Shown here piece by piece: positions 5,942 through 54,560 of a DNA stretch of 64,000 bases (its first letter is position 1; each line of letters starts with the position of its first letter). The translations under genes were made by a program, and so were the position numbers. The stretch spans positions 14,966 to 78,965 of the forward strand of contig CAZOWX010000002.1 in the NCBI GenBank assembly GCA_964583795.1, given 5' to 3'. The notes under the pieces were generated by a model. The model saw only the letters and a program-made list of their open reading frames with translations, did not search any database and was not told where the DNA came from. The DNA comes from an uncultured Pseudomonadales bacterium. GTDB lineage: Bacteria > Patescibacteriota > Microgenomatia > UBA1400 > PJMF01.

Positions 5942-6391
5942 CTAACACACCCCACCGAAACAGATGTCAAAGATTTTGATGGTACTTACTCCAGTAAATC
6001 TGGCAATGAAGTCTAATATAATCCAAGAACTTAGTGAGACAATCAACCCAATAATGGCATACGTCAAAGTGTTTTTCCCGCCTTCCACTCCTTTTGAGTT
6101 GCCTCCGGAGAGTAAATACTGGAACGAACCAACGATCATCATCACAAATCCAGCAAATCCAATCCCACTGATCGCCACGGCCAAAACATTTCCCACTATT
6201 CCCTCGATAGCATGGATGGTAAGGACTCCACCTTCGTCTACACCTTGAGTTTCAGGATTATCAACGCTCACATACCCCTTGTTCGGGTCATCAAGTGGTT
6301 TTATTTGTTGGGCATTTGCTTGAGTCGGGGCACCAACAACGAACACCATCATCCCTACAATGAGCACAAGTTTGTATATCGATTTGAACAT
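5942..6391 (-). CDS. VirB2/TrbC-like pilin family protein (paralog 1 of 7)
   Basis: Signal peptide plus two hydrophobic helices around a GG...GGNSKGVEGGK loop; same architecture and motifs as the six tandem genes at 9444-11860. Confidence 0.5.
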   Translation of the reverse strand: MFKSIYKLVLIVGMMVFVVGAPTQANAQQIKPLDDPNKGYVSVDNPETQGVDEGGVLTIHAIEGIVGNVLAVAISGIGFAGFVMMIVGSFQYLLSGGNSKGVEGGKNTLTYAIIGLIVSLSSWIILDFIARFTGVSTIKIFDICFGGVC

Positions 6392-6446: not shown

Positions 6447-7664
6447 ATGACCCCTACACAAATTCACCATATATTGCCATTTTTGAAAGGACTGAAGTCC
6501 GATCGTGTATTTATTAAATCATTTATTTTTTTTGTGTTGCTCAACACGGGAATTTATCTCAATATAGTAACCTTCCATTCAATTATTCCTCATGGAGATT
6601 CTACAGCTCAAATGCATCACTTTTTACTTGACTACAGAGCTACGCACACACCATTTAGCCTACTACGATCACTTAATCAAACAGATGCCCAATGGTACAT
6701 AGGCATTGCTACTCATGGATATCCAACTCCCCCTAATAATATTTACGACTTCACAGACACAAGCAAATTTAGCAGTTTGGCATTCGCTTTTTTTCCAGTT
6801 TTCCCGCTTCTGATCGCTCTCGTTAACTTAGCGGTACATAACATAGAGCTCTCTGCTTTTATCTTGAATAGTCTCTTTTTGATTGCTGGTTTTGTGAGTC
6901 TTTATGGATTGATTCGAACATTTGGATACAGCGCAATAATCAGCGCAAAAACCTGTCTGTTTTTCTTCTTTTATCCTTTTTCATTTTATTTTCGAAGTTA
7001 CTTTACTGAACCGCTCTTCTTATTACTGCTCATTTGGTTCTACTATTTTTTTACTCAAAAAAAATATATCTTCGCAGCCGTTTTGCTATCGGTGCTAACC
7101 GTAACGAGAGGATCAATCATACTTTTTTTACCGTTTTTCTGGTTACTCACTTTTCAGGACACTGAAAATCTCATGAAGTCACTGGCAATTGTCACGGTTA
7201 CAGTATTACCACTGGGAGCGTGGTCAATCTTTAACTTTGCTCAAACGGGTGATCCACTGTACTTTTTACATATCAGAGATTTGTGGATTCCCTCAGATAT
7301 TCCTTTTCGAAGTTCGATTATTTTTAATATCGCGGTTATCGCAAGTTTTTTTGACTTTCCCATCTTGTTCAGTACATTTAATAAAACGGATATTTTACTC
7401 ATCTTTGCATATGGGTTCCTACTATTAAAGTCCAGAGAAGTAGCTTCAAAAAAAATCTGGATCTCTAATATTTTTCTTTGGCTCTCACCACTCATTTTTG
7501 CCAGTACGATGTCTTTTAACCGTTATTTGTCAGTCATCTTCCAACCATATCTTTATATCGTCAAAAAATTTCCAGACTGGCTATTGAGTCTTACTTTTGT
7601 TTTACAATATATCATTCTCAATATTTTTGTTTTGTTCTTTATTAATGGACATTGGATTGGATAA
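6447..7664 (+). CDS. Polytopic membrane protein, possible GT-C fold glycosyltransferase (ArnT/PMT-like)
   Basis: 405 aa, about 10 predicted TM helices, F/L/I/Y rich, AT-rich gene; family assignment tentative. Confidence 0.35.
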   Translation: MTPTQIHHILPFLKGLKSDRVFIKSFIFFVLLNTGIYLNIVTFHSIIPHGDSTAQMHHFLLDYRATHTPFSLLRSLNQTDAQWYIGIATHGYPTPPNNIYDFTDTSKFSSLAFAFFPVFPLLIALVNLAVHNIELSAFILNSLFLIAGFVSLYGLIRTFGYSAIISAKTCLFFFFYPFSFYFRSYFTEPLFLLLLIWFYYFFTQKKYIFAAVLLSVLTVTRGSIILFLPFFWLLTFQDTENLMKSLAIVTVTVLPLGAWSIFNFAQTGDPLYFLHIRDLWIPSDIPFRSSIIFNIAVIASFFDFPILFSTFNKTDILLIFAYGFLLLKSREVASKKIWISNIFLWLSPLIFASTMSFNRYLSVIFQPYLYIVKKFPDWLLSLTFVLQYIILNIFVLFFINGHWIG

Positions 7665-13371: not shown

Positions 13372-13612
13372 AGAGTTTTCCTTGTTTCAATAATTTTGCG
13401 TGCTCGTGCAACAAGAAGGGCTCGTCATCCTTGACTTGCTAACTAGACTATTTAAGCGAGCAAGTCAGATCGTGAAATTCTGGTCCCGCACTGCGGGACC
13501 AAAATTTCACGATCTGACTGAACTGATTTTGAAAGTGTATCAGTTCAGTCAAGGATGACGACTTTTTATTTTTTTTCTTTCAATACACATTGAACCACTT
13601 CACGATCCACAA

Positions 13613-13660
13613 TCACCCCACTATTAACTGTTTCACTGTCCACTATTCACTAGCACTGCC
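13613..13660 (+). promoter_or_regulatory. Conserved upstream motif CCACTATTAACTGTTTCACTGTCCACTATTCACTA (copy 1); followed by TATAAT 8 nt before the ATG of 13679
   Basis: Near-identical copies in gene orientation upstream of 14793 (+), 26208 (-), dnaA 56664 (-) and at 26395-26440; contains a CACTATT direct repeat. Confidence 0.5.
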
Positions 13661-13678: not shown

Positions 13679-14545
13679 ATGAATCTTCCCATCATCCTCG
13701 CTTTAGTCACCTTTATTGGCTGGGGGACAGGTGATTTATTCACGGTGGTTGCGACTCGCAAAATTGGGGCACTACTGACCACTTTTTGGGTGTTTGCCTT
13801 TAGTTTTTTTCTCTCGTTGCTCGTTTTTCCTCTGGTGCCACATTCATTTGGAAGTATCACGCTGCCACTTCTAATGTTTAATATTTTTTTGGGGATCTTG
13901 CTTGTTTCCGGCAATGTACTGATTAGCGAAGCGTTCAGAATCTCGAGTGCTCCACTAGTTGGAATTATTATTCAAGCCTTTCCAGCAGTTGTGTTGGTGC
14001 TCTCTGCGCTCATTTTTCACGATGTCATCACTCCAATTCAGATGGTGTTTACTGCAGTTATTTTCTGTGGTGTTTTTCTATGTAGCGTTGATCTGGGCAA
14101 GTTAAAACGAGCCGAAAAAATTCTTGACCGAGGAACGACGTTGGCGCTGATTGCGATGGTATTTCTCTCAACTTTTTTCACTTTTTCTCGCATCCTAATT
14201 AACGCGTATGACTGGTTTCTTCCCAGTTTCATTGCTACAGCATGTTTCCCTATTATTTTGCTCTTTATTCATGTCAAAAAAGAGCAATTTACTTTTCCCA
14301 AAGAACTCCCTATTCTCGGGGCTACATTTATGATTGCATTACTGATTCGTTCCGGTGATTTTGCGCTTAACTGGGGCCTCTCGATACCTAGGGCCAGTAG
14401 CATTGTCGCGCCGATTGCTGGAGCAGCTCCAATCTTGTTTGTAATTACCTCATCAGTCATTTTTAAGGACAAACTCACTAAACAGCAAGTTGCCGGTATT
14501 GTCACCACCTTGATTGGGATTGTGTTGCTGACCATGCAGCAGTGA
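13679..14545 (+). CDS. EamA/DMT-family transporter
   Basis: 288 aa, 10 TM helices, N-terminus MNLPIILALVTFIGWGTGDLF typical of EamA permeases. Confidence 0.55.
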   Translation: MNLPIILALVTFIGWGTGDLFTVVATRKIGALLTTFWVFAFSFFLSLLVFPLVPHSFGSITLPLLMFNIFLGILLVSGNVLISEAFRISSAPLVGIIIQAFPAVVLVLSALIFHDVITPIQMVFTAVIFCGVFLCSVDLGKLKRAEKILDRGTTLALIAMVFLSTFFTFSRILINAYDWFLPSFIATACFPIILLFIHVKKEQFTFPKELPILGATFMIALLIRSGDFALNWGLSIPRASSIVAPIAGAAPILFVITSSVIFKDKLTKQQVAGIVTTLIGIVLLTMQQ

Positions 14546-14749
14546 GTCCTGCTACGATTAGCTCCAAGAAATAACAGCTCCTGAACGGTCTGACTCTCAA
14601 CAGTCGCCAAACACTTCAGCTTAGCTGTCCGGTAGGCAGGGATGACGACTTTTTAGTTTTGTTGCTTTTGAAAAATTTTAAGACCAATTTAACACTTGCT
14701 CGCGGTTTATAGTTCTTGAATTTTTGAGCTGGAACATGAAGCTTGTAAC

Positions 14750-14790
14750 CCACTATTAACTGTTTCACTGTCCACTATTCACTACTTTTC
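14750..14790 (+). promoter_or_regulatory. Conserved upstream motif (copy 2) immediately 5' of the mevalonate operon
   Basis: cccactattaactgtttcactgtccactattcactac. Confidence 0.5.
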
Positions 14791-23898: not shown

Positions 23899-23912
23899 AC
23901 AAAACCACTTCA

Positions 23913-24680
23913 GCGTCATCCTCGACCCGACAGAGAAATCCTGGCTACCAGCCAAGAGAGATCAGTCGAGCATCGGGGATCCATAAAAAAATCCCTTTAT
24001 AGAATCGGTCAACGTGGCTATTTTATCCGGTCGTACCAGAGCTCAAAATTCATAGTTTCCTGAATTAACATTGCGAGCACACAGTGCTCTTTTGACAAAA
24101 AAAACTACAGCTTGCTTAAAATGTGTAGAAATGAATCCCTGATGCTCGTCAAAAGAAGGCAGCAATTGGGGTGATCTTGTGAATTCCTGATCCCGCAGTG
24201 CGGGATCAGGAATTCACGATCTGACTGAACTGATTTGAAAAGTGTATCAGTTCAGTCAAGGGTGACAACTTTTTGTTTTTTTTGCTTTCGAAACGGATTT
24301 GCTAATACCCTTTTAATGGATTTACATTGCCTTAATGTTTTTTCTTGATCGTTACCCAGACAAACTGTAGTTGGAGAAATTGGCTCATTGGGTGAAGTCG
24401 TCACGATCATTTACTCAAGATTTTAAACATTAAGGATTCTGACTTTAGATCCTGAATCCGTCATGCTCGTACCTCGCTTGACTGTCCAGGATGACGAGGA
24501 TTATCTGAATAAAAAAGGTTTTAAAACACCAATGGAGAAGTGGTTTAAAAATAAGTAGAGAAGTGGTCTTCTATTTTATTTTTATGATTTAATTTGTAAA
24601 AAAGTTATCAAAGGTTACTGACTTTAGATCCCGATTTTCATCGGGATGACGACAGCTATTCAACTTATCACTTACAACTT
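23913..24680. repeat. Gene-free ~1 kb region packed with dispersed hairpin elements (75-bp element copy; CCCGCAGTGCGGGA hairpin; GTCATCCCGATGAAAATCGGGATC hairpin; GGATGACAAC+T-tract module)
   Basis: Direct comparison with copies at 696-990, 13470-13600, 14638-14690, 27560-27640 and 44380-44990. Confidence 0.7.
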
Positions 24681-24885
24681 GTAACTTTAATGGTTTTCCA
24701 CATCACATGTAATTCTTGCATATGGCTCGTTTAATTACGTCTCATAAGTATTCAACAAATCAAACAGCGCTTAAGTACCACATTGATATAGTTCGGGTTA
24801 TTTCTCCCCTTGTAATGTGAAAAGCGTGAAAATAAGAAATATTATAGGTTGTTAGCAGTTTCCCTCTTCTCTGCTAATCCTCAAC

Positions 24886-25173
24886 TCACTTTTTCTTTTC
24901 TGACTCTTGATCGAGTTTTTTTTGAATTTTGGTCAGTTGCATCGTTACTAAAACAGCAATAACAGTAATCACCGTGGCGTAAATAAACAACGATAACACA
25001 CCACTTCCCTGCCCCAAGTATGGTTTGATGTACACTTCAACCAAATTCTTAATAAACTCATTCCATGCCAAAGCAACCACAACTCCAAAACCACCAGTAG
25101 AAAGTAAAATCATTTGCGAAATCAATGCTCGTGGAAATTCACGGATATCATTTGGAGTTTTAAGACTTGGCAT
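24886..25173 (-). CDS. Small membrane protein (hypothetical)
   Basis: 95 aa, two hydrophobic helices, lysine-rich C-terminus. Confidence 0.3.
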   Translation of the reverse strand: MPSLKTPNDIREFPRALISQMILLSTGGFGVVVALAWNEFIKNLVEVYIKPYLGQGSGVLSLFIYATVITVIAVLVTMQLTKIQKKLDQESEKKK

Positions 25174-25227
25174 AGAATCCTTTTCGTAACGTATGAAGTC
25201 AATATATTAGCATAAATTGCGAATAAA

Positions 25228-25258
25228 ACAAAAAAGAGGGGCGAACCCCTCCTTTTTT
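25228..25258. terminator. Bidirectional intrinsic terminator
   Basis: gaggggcgaacccctc hairpin flanked by A-run 5' and T-run 3'. Confidence 0.6.
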
Positions 25259-25278
25259 ACATTAAGTCAAGTCGGATA

Positions 25279-35372: not shown

Positions 35373-35759
35373 TCAACCGTACTTTCCAGGTTTTCTCACC
35401 TTCAGTCCCTTGATCATCTGGAAATGTTTCACATTATCAGTAACCAAGGTCAGTCCTTCTTCCATTGCTGTCGCGGTAATCAGTGCGTCAAAAAACCCGA
35501 CTCCATGAGAAGGACCATATTGTAATACAATCTCACAAGCCTTTTTGTGAATGCTTTCACTTCCCCAATGAATCTTGCTATTATTTGCAATCTGAACAAC
35601 TTTCTTTTTTTCCTGTTTATTGAACGATCCTTGAAGCAACTCGCCATACGTTACGTATGACATCACATAATCCAAATGAGCATTGAGAAAATTTTGAGAA
35701 GGGAGATGTTTTCTGAGAACGGAGATGAAAACCGTCGTGTCAATCAAGATTGAGTTCAT
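35373..35759 (-). CDS. vapC: PIN-domain toxin VapC
   Basis: MNSILIDTTVFISVLR N-terminus, acidic residues typical of PIN; 20-nt overlap with the upstream antitoxin. Confidence 0.65.
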   Translation of the reverse strand: MNSILIDTTVFISVLRKHLPSQNFLNAHLDYVMSYVTYGELLQGSFNKQEKKKVVQIANNSKIHWGSESIHKKACEIVLQYGPSHGVGFFDALITATAMEEGLTLVTDNVKHFQMIKGLKVRKPGKYG

Positions 35760-36045
35760 ATCGAGGTTTTCTAATGTTATTGACCCATGCTACGGGATCT
35801 GCCATGTCGTCCCGATCTGCCCACATGCCTGCGGCTGCATCAAGAGCTTTCTTTAGCCGTTCTTTTCTCTTTTGCTCATCTTGAGAGGCAACTTTTTCAT
35901 CAGTCACGGGAATAATAAGAGCTTTCACTTTGCCAAACTTTTTCACCACAAAACGTTTTCCCAAATAATCGACCTGATCTAGAATCTCAGCCAAAGTATC
36001 CCTTGTTTGCTTGACAGTCAGTGTGGTATATGGTGTTTGAGACAT
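35740..36045 (-). CDS. vapB: Antitoxin (VapB/Phd-like)
   Basis: 101-aa protein immediately upstream and overlapping vapC. Confidence 0.5.
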   Translation of the reverse strand: MSQTPYTTLTVKQTRDTLAEILDQVDYLGKRFVVKKFGKVKALIIPVTDEKVASQDEQKRKERLKKALDAAAGMWADRDDMADPVAWVNNIRKPRYELNLD

Positions 36046-36144: not shown

Positions 36145-37452
36145 ATGAACCCACCCAGTCAACCGTTGACCGTTCTCGCTATAGAATCGTCCTGTGACGA
36201 GACTGCTTGTTCAGTAGTACAAAAAAGTGACAGTGAACCATTGGCTCACGTCCTCTCCTCTGTTACGGCAACCAGTCTGGCCAAGCATAAAGCAACCAAA
36301 GGAATTGTTCCTGAAATAGCTGCGAGAGAGCAGTTAAAGTATATATTGCCGGTTATTGAGGAAGCGCTGAGTAAACTCAAAACTCAAAACTCAAAATTCA
36401 AAATTGGTAGTCAAAAAACATCCAATAACCAATACCCAACAACCAATACCCAACTTGATGCAATAGCGGTTACCGTCGGTCCAGGATTAGCTGGGTCGCT
36501 CTTAGTCGGGATTGAGACCGCTCGTGCCCTCGCAATGGCGTGGAATCTTCCCATTATTCCGGTCAATCACATAAAGGCTCACCCGTATGCAAATTTCATC
36601 AAAAGTCAAAGCTCAACAAACGATAAACTGGTTCGTGCAGTTGTGAATGAACGATCAACAACTCAACAACTCAACAGCTCAACAACAGTCCCAAACTTTC
36701 CCCTTCTCTCCTGGGTAATCTCCGGCGGACATACCGATTTATTTCTAATGAACTCTCACACCGATATTCAACGACTTGGTGGAACTGTCGATGATGCGGC
36801 TGGTGAGTGCTTTGACAAGTGCGCTCGCGTTCTTGGATTTGATTATCCAGGCGGACCGTTTATCGAAAAATTGGCAGGGGGAAAAAGGAAGATCCCCAAT
36901 GGCCAAGCTCATCCCCCTCGCTTTGCACTTCAGGATGACAAAAACCATCATTTCGGCGAAAGCCGGGATCTATCCACAGTTGTTGTGTCAACAACCCAAC
37001 AACCGAACAACACAACAACTATCCCCCTCCCCCGCCCGCTCTTTTACGAGAAGACTCTGAACATGTCCTTTTCCGGTCTTAAGGCAGCTTTTTTGCGATC
37101 ATTCAACGAAAACAAAGAAACAATCCCACTAGAAGAACTTCAGCACAAACTCGCAACTGCGTTGCAAGAAGCAGTCACAGACATTATCGTCAAACGTACC
37201 CAGCAAGCACTCGAGCTCTATCCGCAAGTTCGCTCAATCATCGTCTCTGGTGGCGTCAGTGCAAATCAGAAATTAAGAGAAAAACTCGACACTCACACCC
37301 AACAACCCAACAACACAACCACTCAACAACTGACAATGCACTTTCCCTCTATTGATTACTGTACCGACAACGCAGCAATGATCGGCAGCTACGCGCTGTT
37401 TCACATGGATGAAAAAACGGATTGGAAAAATGTAAAACTTGACTTAAGCTAA
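36145..37452 (+). CDS. tsaD: tRNA N6-adenosine threonylcarbamoyltransferase TsaD, with several in-frame repeat insertions
   Basis: LAIESSCDETACSVV N-terminus, HIKAHPYA, GGVSANQKLREKL; about 95 aa longer than typical TsaD because of low-complexity inserts (NNQYPTTNTQ; STTQQLNSSTT; HFGESRDLSTVVVSTTQQPNNTTT; HTQQPNNTTTQQL). Confidence 0.8.
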   Translation: MNPPSQPLTVLAIESSCDETACSVVQKSDSEPLAHVLSSVTATSLAKHKATKGIVPEIAAREQLKYILPVIEEALSKLKTQNSKFKIGSQKTSNNQYPTTNTQLDAIAVTVGPGLAGSLLVGIETARALAMAWNLPIIPVNHIKAHPYANFIKSQSSTNDKLVRAVVNERSTTQQLNSSTTVPNFPLLSWVISGGHTDLFLMNSHTDIQRLGGTVDDAAGECFDKCARVLGFDYPGGPFIEKLAGGKRKIPNGQAHPPRFALQDDKNHHFGESRDLSTVVVSTTQQPNNTTTIPLPRPLFYEKTLNMSFSGLKAAFLRSFNENKETIPLEELQHKLATALQEAVTDIIVKRTQQALELYPQVRSIIVSGGVSANQKLREKLDTHTQQPNNTTTQQLTMHFPSIDYCTDNAAMIGSYALFHMDEKTDWKNVKLDLS

Positions 37453-38530: not shown

Positions 38531-39208
38531 TTATCCAAACAGCCCCTCCACCACCGGCGCTAAAATCAAAACAACTGCCATAAACACTGCAAAAAACACA
38601 ATCGCCATAAGAACAGTCTTTATCGAAAGTCCTGCTGATTTTTTAGCCACAGCCAACTCTTCTTCCAACCGTCTCTCATTGTTTTGCAGTTTCTGATCAT
38701 GCGTTTGTTGAGAAGATACCACTTGAATAGACAAAACATCGTGAGAATCGTCATTCATTTCAAGCTCGATCATGTCTCCAATATCTAGGTAGGAGTACAT
38801 CTCTCGCTCAATGTTGTACTCCATTTTCGATTGATCAACAGAAATATAAAAATCATAATGAAGCCCATACTTTGAACGGTACGCAAAGACTCTTTTATTC
38901 GTGATAGTGACTTGTTTTTTACTAATATTTTTTGACCAAATAACAACAAGCAGGTTTCGCAAACTCCATATGACCCAATGCAGTGTTCCAACAGCAAGAG
39001 CTCCAATCAAAAGCGTCACAATCGTGATTGGCTTTTTTATACTTAAGGTGTGTGGGAAGTCCTCAAGCAAAATGCTGGAAAAAGCAAACAGCAGTACTCC
39101 ACTCCCAACCAACTGAAATACGCTTTCCTTTAACACGTTCTTCGTTAAAAGCATCCATTGTGAGGCAGGATTCAATTGTTGACTGCTTGAAGGGTTCTCC
39201 ATACTCAT
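38531..39208 (-). CDS. Membrane protein, possible bacterial PH (YdbS/T-like) domain
   Basis: Two TM hairpin then soluble domain; C-terminal TM. Confidence 0.3.
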   Translation of the reverse strand: MSMENPSSSQQLNPASQWMLLTKNVLKESVFQLVGSGVLLFAFSSILLEDFPHTLSIKKPITIVTLLIGALAVGTLHWVIWSLRNLLVVIWSKNISKKQVTITNKRVFAYRSKYGLHYDFYISVDQSKMEYNIEREMYSYLDIGDMIELEMNDDSHDVLSIQVVSSQQTHDQKLQNNERRLEEELAVAKKSAGLSIKTVLMAIVFFAVFMAVVLILAPVVEGLFG

Positions 39209-39639
39209 ACTATAGCACCATGTGCTATAATTCTCGATAACAAGTGAATCCGGCTAGTCACCGGCAATCTTTCATATAGAAGCTTGAAGCAATCCGCTAT
39301 CGTTATAACGGATTTTTTTAGAGCTATTTTTAAGAAGGATTGATTTGAGAGGAAATCTTTTAGCGTAACACAGCTTATAACACGGGTCAAGCAAGGGACA
39401 CGTGAAAATGGAAATTTTTTTCATTCCGATGTAGGGTTCTTGTCATAATTTCGGACCGATAGTTCGTAAATTTGAAAGACATCTTGAGAAAACGCTCAAA
39501 GAAAGTAGAGCTCAACGGGTACGCCCGTCATAGCAGAAAATAAGAGGTTTCAGGTTTCAGCTTTCAGGTGTCAGGTAATTCCTGAGACCTGACACTCTGA
39601 CATCCGACACCGAAACTACGATGGTACCGAGTGGAAAGC

Positions 39640-39695
39640 ACTCTCGTATATACTTAATGGAGTATGTAGGAGAGTGCTTTTTTGTTGCCCGCCGA
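39640..39695 (+). terminator. Intrinsic terminator-like hairpin in the valS leader (possible attenuator)
   Basis: aagcactctcgtatatacttaatggagtatgtaggagagtgcttttttgtt; preceded by gatggtaccgagtgg, a T-box-like sequence. Confidence 0.4.
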
Positions 39696-39912
39696 AGTAG
39701 ACAGATTTTCAATATGGCTGAACAAGCCCAAAAGTGAAAAATCTGGTACGAAGGAGGGTTAGAAACGTTTGTAATCTTGAACAGTCCTGAGAGCTTGCGC
39801 CGGCAGGCAGGAATCGAGCACAACGGATTCAGGATCTAAAGTCAGTCTATAATAAAAACAGGCCCAGACTTTCCGGGCAACTTAAAGAAGTTAATTAAAA
39901 TAAGGAACAACT

Positions 39913-42678
39913 ATGCAGAAAAACTTTGACCACAACCAATCAGAAACCCACACTTACGAACTTTGGGAAAAAGCTGGAGCATTTAATCCGGACGAGGTAA
40001 AAAGGATGAGGGAGGATCAAAAAGGACAGATCCCGTATCGCCACGCTCCTCACGGTCGCTTGGCAGTACGGGATGACAAAGACGATTTAAAAAGTGTATC
40101 GTCTTTGTCAACACCACACTCCAAGCGTCAACAACTCAACAACTCAACCACTCAACAACCATTCTCCATCATCATGCCTCCTCCCAATGCCAACGACCCG
40201 TTGCATGTGGGTCACGCGATGTTCATCAGCATCGAAGATATTTTGATCCGCTATCATCGCATGAAGGGTGATGACACAATCTGGATCCCAGGGACTGATC
40301 ACGCTGGTATCGAAACACAGTTCGTCTTCGAAAAAAAACTTGCCAAACAAGGTAAAAGCCGGTTTAACTTTGATCGAGACACTCTCTACAAAATGATTTG
40401 GGATTACGTCCAAGAAAATTCAGGAGTCGCTGTCGATCAAATGAAAAAGCTTGGTGCAAGTGCCGACTGGTCACGGTTTACGTTCACACTCGATCCATCC
40501 GTCGTAAAGTTTGTGACAAACACTTTCAAAAAAATGCATCAGGATGGACTCGTTTACCGCGATCAAAAACTGGTGCATTATTGCGTCAAATGTGGTACCA
40601 GCTACTCAGAACTTGAAGTGGTTCACAAAGAACAAACGGATAAATTGTATTACCTCAAATATGGCCCGTTTACTCTTGCCACAACTCGGCCTGAAACGAA
40701 GTTTGCCGACACTGCGGTGGCAGTTCATCCAGATGATACTCGCTACAAAAAATATATTGGAACTGAAATTGAAGTCGAGGGACTGACCAGCAAGTTCAAG
40801 ATGAAAGTCATCGCCGACGAGTATGTCGATAGTGAATTTGGAACAGGTGTCGTGAAGATTACTCCCTACCACGACTTTAACGACTACGAAGTTTGGCAAC
40901 GACATAAAAATGAAATTCCTGCACCAAAACAAGTCATTGGCTTTGACGGGAAGTTAACCGCTATTGCTGGAAAGTATGCTGGAATGAAAGTCAAAGCTGC
41001 TCGAGATCTGATTGAAAAAGACTTGCAAGAAAAAGGCTTACTGGAAAAAGTGAATAACAACTATCTGCACACTGTTGGGGTATGTTATCGCTGTGGAACG
41101 GTTCTCGAACCACTCCCCTTGCCTCAATTTTTTATCAAAGTAAAAGATAAAACCAATAATCTGACACAAAAAGTGTTGGAAGTTTTAGATAAAAAAGAGA
41201 CCAAGATTTATGGAGCTGGTCGAGAAAAAATTTTAAGAAACTGGTTGGAAAACCTTAAAGATTGGAACATCAGTCGCCAAATTGTGTGGGGAATTCGGAT
41301 TCCGGTGTGGTACCCGGTGGAAGGAAATGAAGAGAAAATTTCCGTGTCGTTCATCAATCAAAAAGGAGAGTTTCAAAAAAACGAAACCGTAAAACAACGA
41401 CTCGACGAAGGCTACACGATAGAAGAGATGAAGAAAGGATTGCAACAAGTCTATCCGTCAGCTGAATTGGATTTTGTTGTGGCAACAGAGGATCCTGGAA
41501 TCGATAAGTCAAAGGGCAAAAGTCAAAAGTCAAACAGCACAACAACCCAACCACACGACCACACGACAACACGACCACACGACAACACGTCCACAATGTT
41601 GGAGTCTGCTACAAGCTACAAGCCACAAGCTTCAAGCAAACGCGCCTCATCGGTTTCCTACTTTCCAGAAACCGACACGTTTGACACTTGGTTTTCATCA
41701 GGACAGTGGCCAGTCGTCACTTTAAAGACCAACAACTCAACAACACAACAACACAACAACGACTCTGATTTCGACCGGTTTTATCCAACCACTGTCATGG
41801 AGACTGCCTACGACATTTTGCTGTTCTGGGTAATGCGTATGATGATGATGGGCATTTACTTGGAAAATAAAACACCGTTTGAGCATGTCTACTTGCATGG
41901 GCTCGTCCGCGATGAAAAAGGTCAAAAGATGAGCAAGAGTAAAGGCAATGTGATCAACCCACTGGAGTTTGTGAGTAAATACGGCGCGGATGCCGTCAGA
42001 ATGGCTCTGGTAATGTCCTCTACTCCGGGTTCTGATAGCGCTGTGGGGGAAAATAAAATCAAAGGCATGCGCAACTTTTCCAATAAGATTTGGAATGCCT
42101 CTCGTTTTGTAATGATGGCATTGGACGAACAGAGTAATGCCTCTTATTCAAGAGAGAATCTGCAAATGGAAAAGTCAAAAGTCAAAAGTCAAAAGTCAAG
42201 AGACGACCAAGTTTCTTTTCCTCAGCTGGAAAATCAGAATGATATTCAAGAAGGAAACCGTCATCCCGGCGAAAGCCGGGATCCAGTGAAGTCTGCAACC
42301 GATGTTCAAAAAGACGACGGGGTCCTTCTCCGCCAGTCGGCGGATCAGGATGACAGTGCCTTTAAAAAAAGACTTCAAGAAGTATCTGACGCTGTCTCAG
42401 ACCATTTAGAAAAACTGCGTCCCGGTCAAGCTGCAGAGCTGGTCTACAACGAGTTTTGGCACTGGTTTTGTGATGTGTGTATCGAAGATCAGAAAAAAGG
42501 CAATCTTTCGCGAGGCGCTTTGTTAGAAGGGCTGATTACTTTTCTCAAACTCCTCCACCCATTCGTCCCATTCGTCACTGAAGCACTCTGGCAAGAGCTC
42601 TGGCAAGGAGGTGATGATACGATGAAAGAAATGATGGGAAGTGGGTTGCTAATCGTGGCAGACTGGCCAGGGAAGTAG
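39913..42678 (+). CDS. valS: Valine--tRNA ligase with in-frame repeat insertions
   Basis: HIGH-region PPPNANDPLHVGHA, KMSKS as KMSKSKGN, editing and anticodon-binding regions; inserts QQLNNSTTQQ, KSQKSNSTTTQPHDHTTTRPHDNTST, NNSTTQQHNN, KSKVKSQKS, RHPGESRDP. Confidence 0.9.
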   Translation: MQKNFDHNQSETHTYELWEKAGAFNPDEVKRMREDQKGQIPYRHAPHGRLAVRDDKDDLKSVSSLSTPHSKRQQLNNSTTQQPFSIIMPPPNANDPLHVGHAMFISIEDILIRYHRMKGDDTIWIPGTDHAGIETQFVFEKKLAKQGKSRFNFDRDTLYKMIWDYVQENSGVAVDQMKKLGASADWSRFTFTLDPSVVKFVTNTFKKMHQDGLVYRDQKLVHYCVKCGTSYSELEVVHKEQTDKLYYLKYGPFTLATTRPETKFADTAVAVHPDDTRYKKYIGTEIEVEGLTSKFKMKVIADEYVDSEFGTGVVKITPYHDFNDYEVWQRHKNEIPAPKQVIGFDGKLTAIAGKYAGMKVKAARDLIEKDLQEKGLLEKVNNNYLHTVGVCYRCGTVLEPLPLPQFFIKVKDKTNNLTQKVLEVLDKKETKIYGAGREKILRNWLENLKDWNISRQIVWGIRIPVWYPVEGNEEKISVSFINQKGEFQKNETVKQRLDEGYTIEEMKKGLQQVYPSAELDFVVATEDPGIDKSKGKSQKSNSTTTQPHDHTTTRPHDNTSTMLESATSYKPQASSKRASSVSYFPETDTFDTWFSSGQWPVVTLKTNNSTTQQHNNDSDFDRFYPTTVMETAYDILLFWVMRMMMMGIYLENKTPFEHVYLHGLVRDEKGQKMSKSKGNVINPLEFVSKYGADAVRMALVMSSTPGSDSAVGENKIKGMRNFSNKIWNASRFVMMALDEQSNASYSRENLQMEKSKVKSQKSRDDQVSFPQLENQNDIQEGNRHPGESRDPVKSATDVQKDDGVLLRQSADQDDSAFKKRLQEVSDAVSDHLEKLRPGQAAELVYNEFWHWFCDVCIEDQKKGNLSRGALLEGLITFLKLLHPFVPFVTEALWQELWQGGDDTMKEMMGSGLLIVADWPGK

Positions 42679-42715: not shown

Positions 42716-43549
42716 TCAGTTGGTGCCAATGCGTTGTTTGGAGGATTCAAGGATCCCTACTACAGCTCTTGCTGTATGCCCTTTATCATCTGGCATTGAG
42801 TACCCCCACTTCTTAGCAGTTGTACTTAATACTTCATGAGCACTGTATCCAGGATACAAAAGTGTCATTGAATCAATACTTCGAGGATCATCGGAAACAA
42901 AGTAGTCCGGGTGAGGGCAAACGCCACTATCTGAAACCTCTATAATGTGCTGAAATTCATATTCAACCCCTCCCCGAACCAAGACTCCATATTTAGACTC
43001 AATATTCGCTTTTTGCAAAATTGCCTTCAAATTATCAGCTGTTTGAACATTTGCTGAAATGAATTCAATAACGATTTCTTGACCGGATAAAGCGATTCGC
43101 AATTGTCCATCAATTCCATTTGTTGAGATTGTAATACTTTCTCTATTAATTCCGACTTTCTCTAGCTCTGCTATGATGTCCACAGCTGGTTGAACAGTCC
43201 TTGCATATTTTAAAAGTCCTAAGCGAGCTTTATTTGAATCTACAACTGCAAGAACGTCTTCAACTGATTGAAATAAATCATCATTGAATCCCTCTTGTTT
43301 GTTTTTTGCTAAAAAGGGATTATTATCGACAAGAATTATTCTTTTCGAGCCTGAAACTAACAAGGCTGTAACAATATCTCCACCAGATCCAATGTAGATC
43401 AACGGCATAGTACTTGCTTCAGGGAGTTCTCTGAGTAAAGAATCCTTCACTTGTAACGTAAATCTTAGGTTTTCCTTTTCATTTGTTTTAAGTTGATCAA
43501 GCTTACGACAAATCGTCTCAACAATAATTGATTCTTTACCATCGTTCAT
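42716..43549 (-). CDS. Hypothetical protein
   Basis: 277 aa; no motif recognised. Confidence 0.3.
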   Translation of the reverse strand: MNDGKESIIVETICRKLDQLKTNEKENLRFTLQVKDSLLRELPEASTMPLIYIGSGGDIVTALLVSGSKRIILVDNNPFLAKNKQEGFNDDLFQSVEDVLAVVDSNKARLGLLKYARTVQPAVDIIAELEKVGINRESITISTNGIDGQLRIALSGQEIVIEFISANVQTADNLKAILQKANIESKYGVLVRGGVEYEFQHIIEVSDSGVCPHPDYFVSDDPRSIDSMTLLYPGYSAHEVLSTTAKKWGYSMPDDKGHTARAVVGILESSKQRIGTN

Positions 43550-43854
43550 ACAAGATGATTAAAAAAGTAACTTATTAGCAATGGTACGTTAAAGCAAAAA
43601 GGAAAACAAACATCCATATCTTTGGTAAGAATTCATCATTTCCATACAGTAAACTCGCATTCGTTCATACTGCGGAGAAGCAAGCAAACCAACATCCTTC
43701 TAAGGCTTTCTCCATAATCCATAATCCATAATCCACATTCCCCCTCCTCCTGCTACAATATTCAGAGATGGAATCGCTTGCTTTATTTTTCTTTACCTTG
43801 CGTTTGTCGCTCGCATTACTGAGTGAGTTTTTTTTCGTGGCTGTGCGCTTGCTG

Positions 43855-44232
43855 ATGGGCACAAAAACGTTTTTCTTATCGTTTTTCCTATCATTAGTCG
43901 TTGCGAGTTCGTGGACCGTACAATTGGTGTTCCCAACTCCTCCACCGCAACCACAGGTGGTCATCCTCAAGGATCGTCAAGCGGTTGAGACACGTATTGC
44001 CTTTTGGGAAAGTTTGTCCGCAGTATCACCGACGCGCGATATCTTTCTCAACTTGGAAAAACTCTATCGTTACATTGATGAAAATGATCGCGCACTGCTC
44101 TATCGCAAACGCGCGTTTGAACTGGACCCAAATAATCCGGAGTTTGTGAATGATGAGTGGTTGTGGGAGGAGGAAGAGACCGCTTCACAAGCAGCCAGTC
44201 CTTCAGCTACGGTCGGAAGTGAAAGTCTTTAG
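43855..44232 (+). CDS. Secreted TPR-like protein (hypothetical)
   Basis: Signal peptide MGTKTFFLSFFLSLVVASS; LEKLYRYIDENDRALLYRKRAFELDPNNPEF TPR-like; track ORF begins earlier (43768). Confidence 0.3.
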   Translation: MGTKTFFLSFFLSLVVASSWTVQLVFPTPPPQPQVVILKDRQAVETRIAFWESLSAVSPTRDIFLNLEKLYRYIDENDRALLYRKRAFELDPNNPEFVNDEWLWEEEETASQAASPSATVGSESL

Positions 44233-44379
44233 TGCCTAGTCTATAGTCTTTAGAAGTTGTGGAGTAACCGTGTTGCTCTTCCTTCGCCAAAGGCTACAGA
44301 GCACACAGTAAGTTGTTGCAAAAGTGAAAATGATTTTCATTCGTACAAATCTCCCTTCTTTTGACTCCTTCACAAACCA

Positions 44380-44990
44380 GTCCACTTCCGTCATCCCGAC
44401 GAAAGTCGGGATCTAAAGTCAGAGTTCTTTGGGATTGTTTGAAAAAATATTCTTTTAATTCCTCAACGGTTTTTTCATTGTATTGAAATTAAGGAAATGG
44501 ATCCCGGCCTTGCGCCACCGCTAAAGCTTTATGCGACACGCGGTCGCCGGGATGACGACTTTTTAGTTTTTTTGCTTTCGAATAAGTTTTTCACAAATTA
44601 AAACGCAGTATCCTGTTGGAATGCGAAATAGTATTGAGATAAAAAGGAAACGCTTGTCATCCTTGCGGAGGCGAGGATCTGACTGTAAATGGCTTTGGAG
44701 TCAGGTCCTCGATACTTGGCCCGCCCTGGGCGGGCCAGGTTCAAGGATGACAACTTTTTTATTGTAGTGGCTTTTGAAATAGTTTTTCTCAATCATCTCT
44801 CTGTATTTTCCGAAATGACGACTTTTTAGGTTTTTTGCTTTCAAAATACTAAGTTTTCCTCAATCAACTCTCCGATTTCGACGGCTTTACTCGATCGAGC
44901 TGAGCTCAACGGGTTCATTCATCGGGTCAAGGATGACGACTTTTTTATTTTTGCGGTTTCGAAATTGACTTTCTAGGCTTGGTCCAGACC
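44380..44990. repeat. Cluster of at least 5 hairpin plus T-tract modules (...GGATGACGAC TTTTTAGTTTTTTTGCTTTCGAA) and GTCATCCCGACGAAAGTCGGGATC hairpins in a convergent intergenic gap
   Basis: Tail modules at 44550-44600, 44745-44800, 44812-44860, 44932-44985; hairpins at 44390-44425, 44500-44550, 44700-44745. Confidence 0.7.
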
Positions 44991-45039
44991 TCATCGAGAC
45001 GGCTGAAAAAGTAAAGATAAAGAACGTAAAACAACAAAA

Positions 45040-45063
45040 AAGGGCTCCTTTCGGAGCCCTTAA
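45040..45063 (-). terminator. Rho-independent terminator after rplY and the small downstream ORF
   Basis: gggctcctttcggagccc hairpin followed by T-run on minus strand. Confidence 0.7.
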
Positions 45064-45078
45064 GTCGTTGAAATTTTA

Positions 45079-45264
45079 CTACTCTTTTTGAGCTCTGCGA
45101 GCACAAGCAGCTTGAGATCTTACTTGAATAGCTTTAGTTATATCGGAATCATTGTTCAAAGCAGAAATTGCATCTGCAGTAACTCTTCTCCCTTTTTCAA
45201 ACTGGGCTATTGGAATTCCACTAACTCTAAAACGTTGAATTTCTCTATTTCCATTTTTGCTCAT
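45079..45264 (-). CDS. Small basic protein (hypothetical)
   Basis: 61-aa ORF co-directional with rplY and sharing its terminator. Confidence 0.3.
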   Translation of the reverse strand: MSKNGNREIQRFRVSGIPIAQFEKGRRVTADAISALNNDSDITKAIQVRSQAACARRAQKE

Positions 45265-45341
45265 ATTTTCTCCTTTTTAATAACACTCACAAGCCTGTAT
45301 TATACTACAAACTCAGCACAGTGTCAACTCTTATAGGACTA

Positions 45342-51570: not shown

Positions 51571-52380
51571 TTAACTATTGAACAACTTAAGTTTTCGCGC
51601 CCCCAGTTTTACATACGAAACTAGACCACCTGGGCCAGAAATAAAGTACTGTTGAACAGCACTAAACACGGTCGTAACTACCCAGTAAAGCGCTAGCCCC
51701 GACTGAAATCTCCAGGCAATAAATCCAGTAAAAATCGGCATCATAAACATCGTTTGTTTTTGCATGGTTGCCGCCATGTCGGCAAAATCTTCTTCCTTTT
51801 CGTTCTCTTTCTGAACCGCTTTTTGTTTGCTTTGATTTGGAACGATATCTGGAATCTCAGCCCCTGGAGCAATCATGAGGGAAAGCACTAACTGAGAAAC
51901 TCCGGCTAAAATGGGCAAAATGTGTAAAGGGTCGGGTTTGCTCAGGTTGAGCCAGTAAAAGTCTGGGTTAATCGGGACACCATTGATTTCGGTTTGACCG
52001 ATAAAGTGTTGCAAGACTTGATACAAAACAATTAATAATACAATCTGAACGAGATAGGGGAGACACCCCGACAATGGGTTAATGTTATAGCGCTTGTACA
52101 ACTCCATTTGTGCTTGTTGTAGCTTGGCTGAGTCTTTGCCATGCTTTTTCTTCAACTTGTCGAGCTCTGGTTTGAGATCCATCATTTTCTTTTGAGACTT
52201 CAGCGCACCCACAGAAAACGGTACCAACAAGAAACGGATCAACACGGTGAGAACGATAATCGCTATTCCAAGATTGCCAGTAAGTTGATAAAGCTGAAAC
52301 AAGATTTGAATCGTGAAATCCTTCATAGGATTAAAGAGCGATCCGGCAAACTGAGCAATGGGACTTAAAAAATTAAACAT
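51571..52380 (-). CDS. yidC: Membrane protein insertase YidC (short form)
   Basis: 5-TM YidC/Oxa1 core; synteny rnpA-yidD-yidC-jag. Confidence 0.8.
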   Translation of the reverse strand: MFNFLSPIAQFAGSLFNPMKDFTIQILFQLYQLTGNLGIAIIVLTVLIRFLLVPFSVGALKSQKKMMDLKPELDKLKKKHGKDSAKLQQAQMELYKRYNINPLSGCLPYLVQIVLLIVLYQVLQHFIGQTEINGVPINPDFYWLNLSKPDPLHILPILAGVSQLVLSLMIAPGAEIPDIVPNQSKQKAVQKENEKEEDFADMAATMQKQTMFMMPIFTGFIAWRFQSGLALYWVVTTVFSAVQQYFISGPGGLVSYVKLGARKLKLFNS

Positions 52381-52454
52381 ATCAATGTGCTTTTCTGGTG
52401 TTTGTTTTATAGGTGCTTTGATTCAACGACTTTTTCGGCTGTCCACTCTTCGTT

Positions 52455-52751
52455 TTATACTCTTTGCTTTGACTTCAATACATTCCAAACTCCCCAACAA
52501 CCTAAGATCCTTTTTACTCCGAAAAATAACCCTGAGATTGTACCATGGTTTTTGACCATACGAAGGGTGTAATGGCTACAGCTCTCGTCATAACGACACT
52601 GAAAATGAAACCCAAAAGCCCCCACTAACACACTATTGAGAACTTGCGAAATCACTTTTTGATACAACACTATCAAGGCCGTCACGACAATCATCGGGAT
52701 ACTTTTAGAGGCGGTGTGTAATGTTTTGAACTTCTTTAGCAAGTTGATCAT
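52455..52751 (-). CDS. yidD: Membrane protein insertion efficiency factor YidD
   Basis: YQKVIS...CRYDESCSHY...RILGC matches the YidD pattern. Confidence 0.7.
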   Translation of the reverse strand: MINLLKKFKTLHTASKSIPMIVVTALIVLYQKVISQVLNSVLVGAFGFHFQCRYDESCSHYTLRMVKNHGTISGLFFGVKRILGCWGVWNVLKSKQRV

Positions 52752-53022
52752 ATGACGAGTTTTTTCCTTTGGGGAAAAATATCACAACAAGTTGTTTTTG
52801 TGATAACTGAGCCTTTGCTTTCAGCAAGACGCTTTTCATTCGTCGCGAAAGAATGTGTCGTTGAACGGCCAACTTACTCACTTTCTTTGGGACAATGATG
52901 GCAAACTGTGTGTCTTGTGATGGGCGCCACCAAACTTGAAAACTCTGGGCGTTTTGACGTTTTGCGGTTTTGAAAAACTGCGTTTCATGACGAAGGTCAA
53001 GCCTATTCTCTTGAGGAAGCAT
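52705..53022 (-). CDS. rnpA: Ribonuclease P protein component
   Basis: Small basic protein between rpmH and yidD; overlaps yidD start. Confidence 0.7.
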   Translation of the reverse strand: MLPQENRLDLRHETQFFKTAKRQNAQSFQVWWRPSQDTQFAIIVPKKVSKLAVQRHILSRRMKSVLLKAKAQLSQKQLVVIFFPKGKNSSYDQLAKEVQNITHRL

Positions 53023-53059
53023 ACCATTCCTTCAGCTTTCCAAGCTCACCATGATCCCT

Positions 53060-53203
53060 TTAGACAGTCAAGCGCTTGCGCCCTCTAGCTCTTCGTCTTT
53101 TGAGCACTGTACGACCATCTTTGGTCGTCATTCTTTTCAGAAATCCGTGTACTCGAACGCGTTTCATTTTTTTTGGTTGCCAGGTGCGCTTGGTCTTGGG
53201 CAT
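53060..53203 (-). CDS. rpmH: 50S ribosomal protein L34
   Basis: Not in ORF track (47 aa). Hand translation of minus strand: [47 protein letters not shown]. Confidence 0.85.
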
Positions 53204-53459
53204 ACTCTACTCCTTAGATTTTGGGCACAATAAGAACAAACATTATACTTGAGAAAAATGAGAAAGGAAAGAGGAGGAGGGACAGATTCAGAGGTTGGGG
53301 GTTAGGGTTTTGGCCTTAGTCAATAAACCTCACTCATCAATTCATCCTGCCGGAGCGGTTAACCACGATAGCGGTCTGAGCATCTATGGTCAGAGCGCTT
53401 GATAAAGTAAAAGCATGTCTACTTGTTACGAAAACTCTACTCGAAAGTTCTTCTGGTTT

Positions 53460-54560
53460 CTAACTGCTCAACTTAAAGGGAACGGCAATATATGTTACTT
53501 GAGGAATCTTTTTACAGCTGAGACGAACGGGCTTGAGCGGATCGTTGCAATAAATTTGGCACTCTTCACCAGCAATTCGTTGTAAAAATTCCAAAAGGTA
53601 TCTCCCATTAAACGCGATCTTCAAACTTTCTTGGGTGTTTGATTTCGCGCTCAGGGAACTCGTGTATTCCCCTAAAAGAGAGGAGTGTGCACTCACACTC
53701 ATTTGGTCGGGAAAAACTTCAATTTGCACAATACTAGAGCCTTCGGCGCTAAAGATCATGGCTGATCGGATGTGGTGTTGCAGTTCATCGGCATCGACTG
53801 AAACTTCAATTGCGAACTCTTTGGGGATCACCGCTTTATAATTGGGAAACTCTCCTTCAAGAGTCCTCAACACAATCTGGGCACTCGGGAGAGAAAAAAA
53901 GACTTGTTTAGCACCTTGAGAAAAAGAAAGCATCACCGTATCCACTTTTTGAGACACAACAACTTTCTCAATTTCATTGATTGCTTTGGCTGGAAATAAG
54001 ATCTGCTTTGGCTCTTTGACTGAAAGCGCAGGTTCCAGGAGAGACATGCAGTACCCATCGGTAGCAACAATGTGTGACTGCTCAGACAAAGCAAACAAAA
54101 CTGCTGTCAAAATGGGTCGGTTTTCGTCTTTGCTTGATGTAAAGGTAACATAGTTCACCGCATCACTCAAAATAGACGCGGGCAAAGTCAGCGTCTCTCC
54201 CTCAACTTGTGGAAATGGAGGGAAGTCTTGTTCTGGGAACGTGTTTACCACGCTTTTGGTTTGATTCGAAGTAACTGACAGTGAAAGCCCACTCAAAACA
54301 AGACTCACTGATCCTGTCAGACTGGAAACAAGCTCACTAAAAACTTTAGCAGGAATAACACAAGAGCCTTCTTCGGCAACGGATCCGGCAATTTTTTGTC
54401 TCATACCAATGTTCAGATCAGTGGCAGTGAGCCAAATTTCTGAGTTTCTGGCTTCTAACAAGATACATGACAGAATTGGTAGCTGCGGCTTGGTGGAAAG
54501 AAAACGAGAAACAGTTTTAATTCCAGTGAGGAGGTTGGTTTGTAAAACATCGATTTTCAT
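53460..54560 (-). CDS. dnaN: DNA polymerase III beta subunit (sliding clamp)
   Basis: MKIDVLQTNLLTGIKTVSRFLS... three-domain clamp; track ORF extends upstream into oriC (54743), ATG at 54560 preferred. Confidence 0.8.
   Translation of the reverse strand: MKIDVLQTNLLTGIKTVSRFLSTKPQLPILSCILLEARNSEIWLTATDLNIGMRQKIAGSVAEEGSCVIPAKVFSELVSSLTGSVSLVLSGLSLSVTSNQTKSVVNTFPEQDFPPFPQVEGETLTLPASILSDAVNYVTFTSSKDENRPILTAVLFALSEQSHIVATDGYCMSLLEPALSVKEPKQILFPAKAINEIEKVVVSQKVDTVMLSFSQGAKQVFFSLPSAQIVLRTLEGEFPNYKAVIPKEFAIEVSVDADELQHHIRSAMIFSAEGSSIVQIEVFPDQMSVSAHSSLLGEYTSSLSAKSNTQESLKIAFNGRYLLEFLQRIAGEECQIYCNDPLKPVRLSCKKIPQVTYIAVPFKLSS

Follow-up and report, generated by a model that had tools for sequence, protein, structure and literature searches.

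A CGTC-tagged hairpin in valS and tsaD of a Microgenomates-like bacterium, a probable in-frame member of the CGTC-1/Ssn-related motif family

A hairpin repeat within two translation genes

The 64-kb stretch of DNA considered here (contig CAZOWX010000002.1; hereafter the window) carries a short hairpin repeat that occurs in intergenic spacers and also within the reading frames of valS and tsaD. It is very probably a CGTC-tagged repetitive extragenic palindromic (REP) sequence of the CGTC-1 family, equivalent to the Ssn-related motif (SRM), which resides in a Patescibacteria (Microgenomates-like) genome and has entered both genes in frame as a passenger peptide. The anatomy of the family, the covariation of its stem, the absence of the genic copies from orthologues, the independent insertions in relatives and the SRM(+)-ssn-SRM(-) arrangement in Microgenomates metagenome-assembled genomes (MAGs) are directly supported.

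According to Di Nocera, De Gregorio and Rocco (2013, PMC3733652), a CGTC-1 REP has an unpaired CGTC or TGTC tag (variant CCTC), an 8-bp stem that begins with AT, a loop of 4 nt and a tail of three bases, usually CCA. The authors equated the family with Neisseria dRS3 and with the Rickettsia palindromic element RPE-6, and some CGTC REPs were found wholly within open reading frames (ORFs), tRNA synthetase genes included. NTS (CGTCATTCCCGCGMAVGCGGGAATCYRG) and, more broadly, SRM are later names for these hairpins (Nat Commun 2025, PMC11893778). They constitute the single-stranded DNA targets of the 94-aa GIY-YIG nuclease SsnA (catalytic residues Y6, Y17 and E64), which does not bind the RNA form of the hairpin; ssn genes are typically flanked by them, and about 2% of the NTS are genic in N. 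meningitidis (PMC11893778). Intragenic in-frame copies of the CGTC-1/SRM family are thus already published, both as Rickettsia RPE-6 and from tRNA synthetases of other bacteria (PMC3733652, PMC11893778).

Both strands of the window were scanned with the motif GTCATCCCGRYGAAARYCGGGATC, allowing up to three mismatches. Five matches were obtained (2183-2206, 24627-24650 on the minus strand, 36947-36970, 42260-42283 and 44390-44413), compared with none in 100 dinucleotide-preserving shuffles, which bears out the claim of an earlier note on this DNA that the repeat has genic and intergenic copies. The complete elements, with a sixth from a scan for CGTC-headed hairpins, are as follows:

2182-2209, plus strand: intergenic short copy, stem ATCCCGAT / ATCGGAAT, abutting the Shine-Dalgarno sequence of a Fic gene
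24624-24651, minus strand: intergenic short copy in a mosaic spacer, ATCCCGAT GAAA ATCGGGAT, tail CTAA
36946-36973, plus strand: degenerate short CGTC-1 hairpin in tsaD, CATC-ATTTCGGC-GAAA-GCCGGGAT-CTAT, reading HHFGESRDL (TsaD 268-276, nt 36946-36972)
42259-42286, plus strand: short CGTC-1 hairpin in valS, 28 bases, CGTC-ATCCCGGC-GAAA-GCCGGGAT-CCAG, reading RHPGESRDP (ValS 783-791, nt 42259-42285)
44389-44416, plus strand: intergenic short copy, ATCCCGAC GAAA GTCGGGAT
44655-44682, plus strand: short TGTC-tagged variant with a GGAG loop

The position given earlier for the valS copy (42259) and its translation are exact. The tsaD copy is also present, but it had been placed at 36955-36980, about 9 nt to the right of its true position.

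All intact short copies read CGTC + ATCCCGRY + GAAA + RYCGGGAT + C(C/T)A. The tag is CGTC in four of the five matches and CATC in the decayed tsaD copy; the stem (ATCCCGRY / RYCGGGAT, 8 bp) and the 4-nt GAAA loop agree with the published anatomy, and the tail is CCA in the valS copy and CTA or CTG in the other four. The bases critical for binding and cutting by SsnA are likewise retained, the 3' C in all five copies and the 5' GTC in four (ATC in tsaD). The published SRM pattern, HGTCWYN(0-2)YYVSBRHN(0-5)WNVSBRGN(0-2)RNCYNB, has a single match in the window (0.16 expected), at 42259-42286, i.e., the valS copy. The copies at 24624 and 44389 additionally have about 30 nt of 3' flank in common.

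Folded as DNA, the intact copies form an 8-bp stem with a GAAA loop, ....((((((((....)))))))...., with a free energy (dG) of -7.6 to -9.8 kcal/mol and z-scores of -3.9 to -4.8; the lower values belong to the valS copy (-9.8 kcal/mol, z -4.8), for which the RNA fold reaches -16.0 kcal/mol, so that the influence on mRNA structure raised in the earlier note is possible. The tsaD copy differs from the motif at three positions, and two C-to-T changes in its stem leave G.T pairs, so that it is weak as DNA (-4.6 kcal/mol) but stable as RNA (-10.3 kcal/mol).

No Rfam 15 family reaches its gathering score anywhere in the window, and a tRNA scan of the window returned nothing. Three other identities were considered and rejected: a CRISPR repeat (there is no array), an intein or intron (the element is too short and lacks the signatures), and an assembly artefact (the copies are in frame and recur across independent assemblies). 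A literature search on the peptide strings gave no match, and no work linking REPs with Patescibacteria was found in the literature searched.

Long-loop elements

The scan for CGTC-headed hairpins revealed, besides the six short elements, at least nine with loops of 27-47 nt that have the tag, outer stem and tail in common with them:

701-770, plus strand: 70-nt CGTC element, 47-nt loop
918-987, minus strand: 70-nt TGTC element, inverted partner of 701-770
23914-23983, plus strand: 70-nt CGTC element
24446-24496, minus strand: long-loop CGTC element, 28-nt loop
27568-27637, minus strand: 70-nt CGTC element
36889-36940, minus strand: long-loop CGTC element within tsaD, next to the short copy on its upstream side, reading IPNGQAHPPRFALQDD (TsaD 250-265)
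40027-40078, minus strand: long-loop CGTC element in the N-terminal insertion of valS, TGTC-ATCCCGTA-[29 nt]-TACGGGAT-C, reading IPYRHAPHGRLAVRDD (ValS 40-55)
44498-44557, minus strand: long-loop CGTC element with the stem of the valS short copy (ATCCCGGC / GCCGGGAT), 37-nt loop, tail CCAT
44702-44752, minus strand: long-loop TGTC element

The window therefore contains at least 15 CGTC elements, about one per 4 kb. As valS and tsaD hold two each, at least four of the 15 clear elements are genic; the non-genic ones are concentrated in two mosaic spacers (23899-25278 and 44233-45341). The long elements of valS and tsaD are 75% identical to one another. The valS element folds well as RNA (-25.2 kcal/mol, z -3.4), and the stem of the tsaD element is degenerate, its fold being no better than those of shuffles.

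Distribution and covariation of the stem

A scan of one genome per species with the pattern GTCATCCCGNNGAAANNCGGGATC yielded at least 120 loci; among the matches listed, most belong to Sphingomonas, Xanthomonadales and other Proteobacteria, and others to Microgenomates bacterium UTCPR1, Ignavibacteria, Bacteroidales and further groups. In the 148 copies among these listed matches, the two free stem positions form Watson-Crick pairs in 145, C precedes GTC in 119 and T does so in 22, and the most frequent tails are of the CCA type (CCA(G/T)).

In the window itself, the two pairs in the middle of the stem of the five short copies are AT/AT, GC/GC or AC/GT and are complementary in every copy. A covariation set was gathered from the window and related loci of low GC content, the search being anchored solely on the tag, the two outermost stem pairs and the 3' C. 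Among its 85 distinct low-GC sequences, 62 have every one of the six inner positions paired (chance would give about 0.3%). Pairing extends to 92% of the cells of this alignment, compared with 78% in shuffles and 17-49% with the partners slid. The compensatory stem changes that the earlier note had proposed to look for are abundant, with 123 double-change cells (33 expected) and compensation in six of the six variable pairs. The loops of the low-GC set are mostly GNRA.

Genic copies and their protein context

The identities of the two host genes hold:

39913-42678, plus strand: valS, ORF of 921 aa, ValS by NCBIfam NF004349 (730 bits)
36145-37452, plus strand: tsaD, ORF of 435 aa, TsaD by NCBIfam TIGR03723 (308 bits), relatives 348-403 aa

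Homologues of the ValS protein come from Patescibacteria (Amesbacteria, Chisholmbacteria, Pacebacteria and similar) and have 740-780 aa. The window protein is about 170 residues longer, and the whole excess falls within four blocks predicted to be disordered. Judging by the alignments, the genic copies are lineage-specific in-frame insertions. The RHPGESRDP block is missing from all 18 relatives in a 19-sequence ValS alignment, including P0002 (81% identity over aligned columns). GESRD, which had been expected to be absent from orthologues, occurs neither in the 81%-identical ValS of a syntenic relative nor in 118 other ValS homologues, and the GESRD block is equally absent from the TsaD of the three syntenic relatives L121, L122 and L123 (403, 378 and 348 aa).

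In the AlphaFold model of ValS (mean pLDDT 77.6), confidence drops below 50, with no secondary structure, at exactly residues 41-79, 535-579, 611-615 and 761-811. These four segments coincide with the four insertion blocks, which thus lie in low-confidence loops predicted to be disordered; the long-loop element at 40027-40078 sits in the first of them. The last belongs to a composite insertion:

42193-42345, plus strand: ValS 761-811, disordered part of the composite insertion, with the end of (AAAAGTC)4 and the short hairpin

In an alignment with the T. thermophilus ValRS (1GAX), a stretch of 81 residues of the window protein (737-818) bridges a gap of 18 residues that separates helices of the anticodon-binding domain. 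In-frame insertion into a conserved gene, absence from orthologues and location in a tolerated region are the features of Rickettsia-type palindromic elements, and all are found here, tolerance of the site being indicated for ValS also by the AlphaFold model. The valS copy is free of stops in five of its six frames, which accounts for the tolerance of the hairpin in coding sequence.

The insertions in ValS and TsaD are composite, as had been suspected from neighbouring repeats. The CAAC-type neighbour named in the earlier note is present in tsaD, where (CAACAACC)x3.9 occupies 36989-37019, 16 nt downstream of the hairpin; in valS, however, the neighbour is (AAAAGTC)x4.3 at 42170-42199, and the closest CAAC array lies at 41730-41760. 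A possible decayed second head, TCAGGATGACA, is located at 42345-42355, just beyond the end of the ValS 761-811 block; this 11-nt remnant was the sole match when the insertion flanks of valS and tsaD were compared with the window by blastn-short.

Tandem repeats with 7- or 8-nt units (TCAACAAC, ACCACACG, AAAAGTC and AAACTCA; about 4-6 copies each) are common within both frames (tsaD 36373-36403, 36655-36686, 36989-37019 and 37297-37330; valS 40128-40159, 41550-41595, 41730-41760 and 42170-42199). Their unit lengths are not multiples of three, yet both ORFs remain open, and the repeats account for the STTQQPNNTTT-type low-complexity peptides of ValS and TsaD.

Recurrence in relatives

CGTC elements of related Patescibacteria occur at other sites in the same two genes. 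In L122, tsaD contains a CGTC element of the long-loop type (IPYGLAPDSHQALRDD), and the N-terminus of valS contains a short one, reading IPAFAGMT. L123 contains two CGTC dimers within valS, one of which reads DSRFRGND. No GTCATCC heptamer is present in the 21.6 kb of L121. The tsaD gene of this relative contains two copies (6997-7080 and 7285-7368, 89% identical) of an unrelated 84-nt hairpin-containing element, in frame and at the same two TsaD loop sites where the window has CAAC repeats or CGTC elements.

Independent events at permissive sites, together with the lineage-specific presence of the copies, suggest that the hairpins are mobile. The earlier proposal of a second family of coding-tolerant mobile hairpins thus stands as regards in-frame genic insertion; the family itself is not newly seen, being CGTC-1 REP/SRM, and its mobility is read from presence and absence.

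GIY-YIG genes flanked by the hairpin

A partner nuclease was sought in metagenomes with a low-GC variant of the hairpin (GTCATCCCGATGAAAATCGGGATC). Among 120 loci fetched by the hairpin alone (539 kb, median GC 43%), seven encode GIY-YIG proteins of about 90 aa (Pfam PF01541) that are 44-56% identical to the protein of the Sphingomonas locus L068. Most of the seven genes have CGTC-1 hairpins about 15-100 nt away on both sides, with tag, stem and loop as in the window copies (ATCCCGAT, ATCCCGAC and ATCCCGGC stems). The nearest named homologue, at 85% identity, is 'GIY-YIG nuclease family protein [Microgenomates group bacterium]', and others come from Roizmanbacteria and Parcubacteria.

In the Microgenomates MAG L244, the source of this nearest homologue, the GIY-YIG gene (6001-6285) lies between hairpins at 5961-5987 (plus) and 6301-6329 (minus), heads outward, and the hairpin upstream of this ssn-like gene has the tag, stem and loop of the window copy at 44389, the tail being different. 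Altogether, association of the hairpin with a GIY-YIG gene of about 94 aa in the lineage is found in L244 and L245 (Microgenomates), L246 and L247 (Roizmanbacteria) and the seven metagenome loci. In the proteins from these members of the candidate phyla radiation (CPR), two Tyr and one Glu residues appear to align with the published Y6, Y17 and E64, offset by one. NCBIfam has no Ssn-specific model; the proteins match just a model for group I intron endonucleases, and weakly.

Two further genic occurrences were seen in these MAGs. Two CGTC hairpin dimers lie inside a PMT_2 glycosyltransferase gene adjacent to the GIY-YIG gene of L244 (6431-7873), and a CGTC dimer lies inside a UvrD/AddB-like helicase gene of L247 (8197-11205), which echoes the published DNA-repair bias of genic REPs.

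Pfam searches with ten unannotated ORFs near the window repeats identified a PIN toxin, a sigma factor, EamA and others, with no nuclease or transposase among them, and tblastx of the ssn loci against the window detected no genes in common.

Proposed explanation and alternatives

We propose that one DNA strand folds into an 8-bp hairpin with a GNRA-type loop, an unpaired 5' CGTC tag and a 3' C. By analogy with other systems, in which a single-domain GIY-YIG nuclease of about 94 aa, Ssn, binds the single-stranded hairpin and nicks just upstream of the tag, the source genome would possess its own ssn, and Ssn or another enzyme would move the hairpins. Short and long-loop forms would have spread mostly into mosaic intergenic spacers, four copies having reached variable loops of ValS and TsaD. 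An insertion block that keeps the frame would only lengthen a loop and might therefore survive purifying selection as a passenger peptide; the inserts would be translated and neutral, giving peptides such as NRHPGESRDPVK (valS) and HHFGESRDL (tsaD).

Several points weigh against this account or parts of it. A search by regular expression and tblastn detected no GIY-YIG gene in the 64-kb window, in L012 or in L121-L123 (about 70 kb of close relatives), so that a cognate Ssn is unproven for the source genome. The assignment of the CPR GIY-YIG proteins to cd10448, and thereby to Ssn, is drawn from their size, the positions of the Tyr, Tyr and Glu residues and the flanking hairpins, and they are best regarded as candidates. 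Ssn is not known to move CGTC hairpins, and the Neisseria hairpin ATTCCCGCGCAGGCGGGAATC has been attributed to a Group-2 RAYT (Bertels and Rainey). Only one of the five short copies fits the SRM pattern, those with AT or AC stem pairs missing it at one S position. Finally, the short copies of the window are singletons, whereas head-to-head dimers are said to predominate in CGTC families (PMC3733652); this is a family tendency and no strict criterion, and inverted CGTC pairs are present in the relatives L123 and L244 and in many Proteobacteria.

The outward-facing SRM(+)-ssn-SRM(-) arrangement might constitute an active system resembling an insertion sequence (IS) in Microgenomates, from which orphan hairpins repeatedly enter the same permissive loops of essential proteins; we consider this a tentative and rather unlikely extension. 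If true, much of the extra loop sequence of CPR housekeeping proteins would be built from mobile hairpin DNA, and these organisms would offer a small, simple genome for testing how CGTC REPs move, a long-open question.

A first alternative is that the hairpins are REPIN-type elements mobilized by a RAYT, i.e., an IS200/IS605-like Y1 transposase, with Ssn as a mere neighbour or regulator. The decay of Neisseria REPINs tied to frameshifted Group-2 RAYTs (Bertels and Rainey) and the inverted dimers of CGTC hairpins in L123 and L244 would fit such a mechanism. However, the tag is CGTC and not GTAG, and tblastn with E. coli RayT, a distant query for a single-copy gene, gave no match at E<=1 across 718 kb of low-GC loci that carry the hairpin and 860 kb of genome loci, whereas the same sets contain ssn-like genes in eight pattern-fetched low-GC loci and one genome locus. 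The window, too, has no RayT-like match and no transposase gene. Precomputed Pfam annotations of L121-L123 and L244-L247 include no Y1_Tnp, and no transposase has been linked to CGTC REPs according to Di Nocera et al. (PMC3733652). This alternative is improbable.

The genic copies could instead be kept for a role of the hairpin in mRNA, such as nuclease protection or translation pausing, the peptide being a by-product. The stable RNA folds of the valS and tsaD copies, the mostly GNRA loops, and the two C-to-T changes in tsaD, which keep G.U pairs on the sense strand only, would agree with such a role, and many REPs have been argued to act as RNA (Di Nocera et al., PMC3733652). Nevertheless, the changes in tsaD are non-synonymous and look like decay, and GAAA loops also give stable DNA hairpins. 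Intergenic spacers harbour the element as well, and it occurs in either orientation; in the long-loop genic copies the tag lies on the antisense strand, orthologues function with no hairpin, and the RNA form is not bound by SsnA (PMC11893778). Retention for an RNA function is accordingly quite improbable.

It is highly improbable that ValS and TsaD gained the inserted peptides as adaptations, e.g., as new interaction loops. Several lineages do fill the same loop sites, and three long-loop genic copies have a common orientation and frame, reading IP...(R/Q)DD, but a common frame is weak evidence (about 1 in 16). Different lineages fill these sites with unrelated elements (L121 with the 84-nt element, the window with CAAC repeats or CGTC elements), disorder is predicted for the ValS blocks, and the inserted sequences are identical to intergenic repeats.

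Other features of the window

The CGTCAT tag of the short copy at 2182, directly upstream of the Fic gene, creates an extra in-frame upstream ATG on the minus strand. Within the region 2170-2209, the GAGGTG Shine-Dalgarno sequence and the second ATG (2172) look like the real start.

The two mosaic spacers, each longer than 1 kb, also hold a six-copy repeat family, GGATGACGACTTTTTAGTTTTTTTGCTTTCGAA, with further copies at 13550 and 14637, and resemble the intergenic mosaic elements of Neisseria. Long perfect palindromes (24179-24217 and 13463-13519) are likewise part of this mosaic. A second hairpin family, at 24222-24258 and 40074-40110 with a variant near 13513-13551, is characterized by a conserved 11-nt loop, TTRAAAAGTGT, and by 13-bp stems, TGAC-N6-GAT / ATC-N6-GTCA, whose six middle pairs all differ yet remain complementary. 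Its valS copy (40074-40110) abuts the long CGTC element.

The leader of valS (39209-39912, about 700 nt) is non-coding and includes (AGGTTTC)x4.6, a hairpin resembling a terminator (about 39636-39690) and, at about 39782-39848, the decayed form of a long-loop CGTC element; the leader matches no Rfam family. In comparison with the syntenic L121, the window has extra genes at 35373-36045, 38531-39208 and 42716-44232, namely a PIN toxin with an upstream small ORF, a 225-aa ORF, and 277-aa and 154-aa ORFs, the last two having no family matches. Perfect 36-nt direct repeats (13617-13652 and 14749-14784) bracket an EamA transporter gene (13679-14545), with more repeat modules on either side.

The cumulative GC skew reaches its minimum at about 52000-54000, and L121 has rnpA, yidC, jag and dnaN in the corresponding region; this part of the window is therefore probably the replication origin. 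The CGTC elements display no strand bias relative to the skew switch (seven plus, eight minus).

Significance

The CGTC-1 family and its occurrence inside genes are already known. New aspects are the host (Patescibacteria/Microgenomates), the copy density, the many long-loop variants and the large proportion of copies that lie in essential genes. The CGTC-REP/Ssn-motif family is thereby extended to the CPR, and streamlined genomes of about 1 Mb appear to tolerate selfish hairpin DNA within essential translation genes. Where CPR proteins contain strings like RHPGESRDP, IPAFAGMT or DSRFRGND, these should be interpreted as passenger insertions and not as lineage-specific functional motifs, and such repeat-derived peptides can inflate the apparent divergence of proteins. 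The ssn genes of Microgenomates (a product of which is MFZ2207006.1, P0121), with their own hairpins, represent candidate new specificities for enzymes that cut single-stranded DNA.

Comparison with known systems

Rickettsia palindromic elements provide a close parallel: in both cases, the housekeeping genes of a bacterium that has a small genome and depends on a host carry in-frame palindromic insertions, tolerated at the protein surface. RPE-1, as described in the work of Ogata and colleagues, reportedly comprises elements of 100-150 bp, unrelated in sequence to the window hairpin. The window inserts differ from RPE-1 in their size (28-70 nt) and in their combination with period-7 and period-8 microsatellites.

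The REPIN-RAYT system (Bertels and Rainey) is similar in having short hairpin repeats, often as inverted doublets, and a single-copy partner gene flanked by repeats; moreover, the Neisseria REPIN master sequence is a CGTC-1 hairpin. The present elements differ from it by the lack of a GTAG tag and of any RAYT in about 1.6 Mb of hairpin-bearing loci, and the partner found beside them is a GIY-YIG protein, not a Y1 transposase.

With CGTC-1 (PMC3733652), the window elements have in common the CGTC/TGTC tag, the 8-bp stem starting with AT, the 4-nt loop and the short unpaired tail (CCA in the valS copy), as well as the many dispersed copies, some of them inside ORFs including tRNA synthetase genes, and the longer-loop variants. 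They differ in their host phylum, which lies outside that survey, in their tails (mostly CTA/CTG), in the lack of head-to-head dimers among the short copies, in the many loops of 27-47 nt and in the share of genic elements (at least 4 of 15).

In comparison with the Neisseria NTS/dRS3 and SsnA (PMC11893778), no ssn is present in the window, the stem reads ATCCCGRY and not ATTCCCGCG, and the genic share exceeds the 2% or so of NTS. The two systems nevertheless agree in the succession of CGTCAT, palindrome and C, with the valS copy conforming to the SRM pattern, and the NTS-ssnA-NTS arrangement has its counterpart in the Microgenomates MAGs, where identical hairpins flank GIY-YIG genes of about 94 aa with their heads outward.

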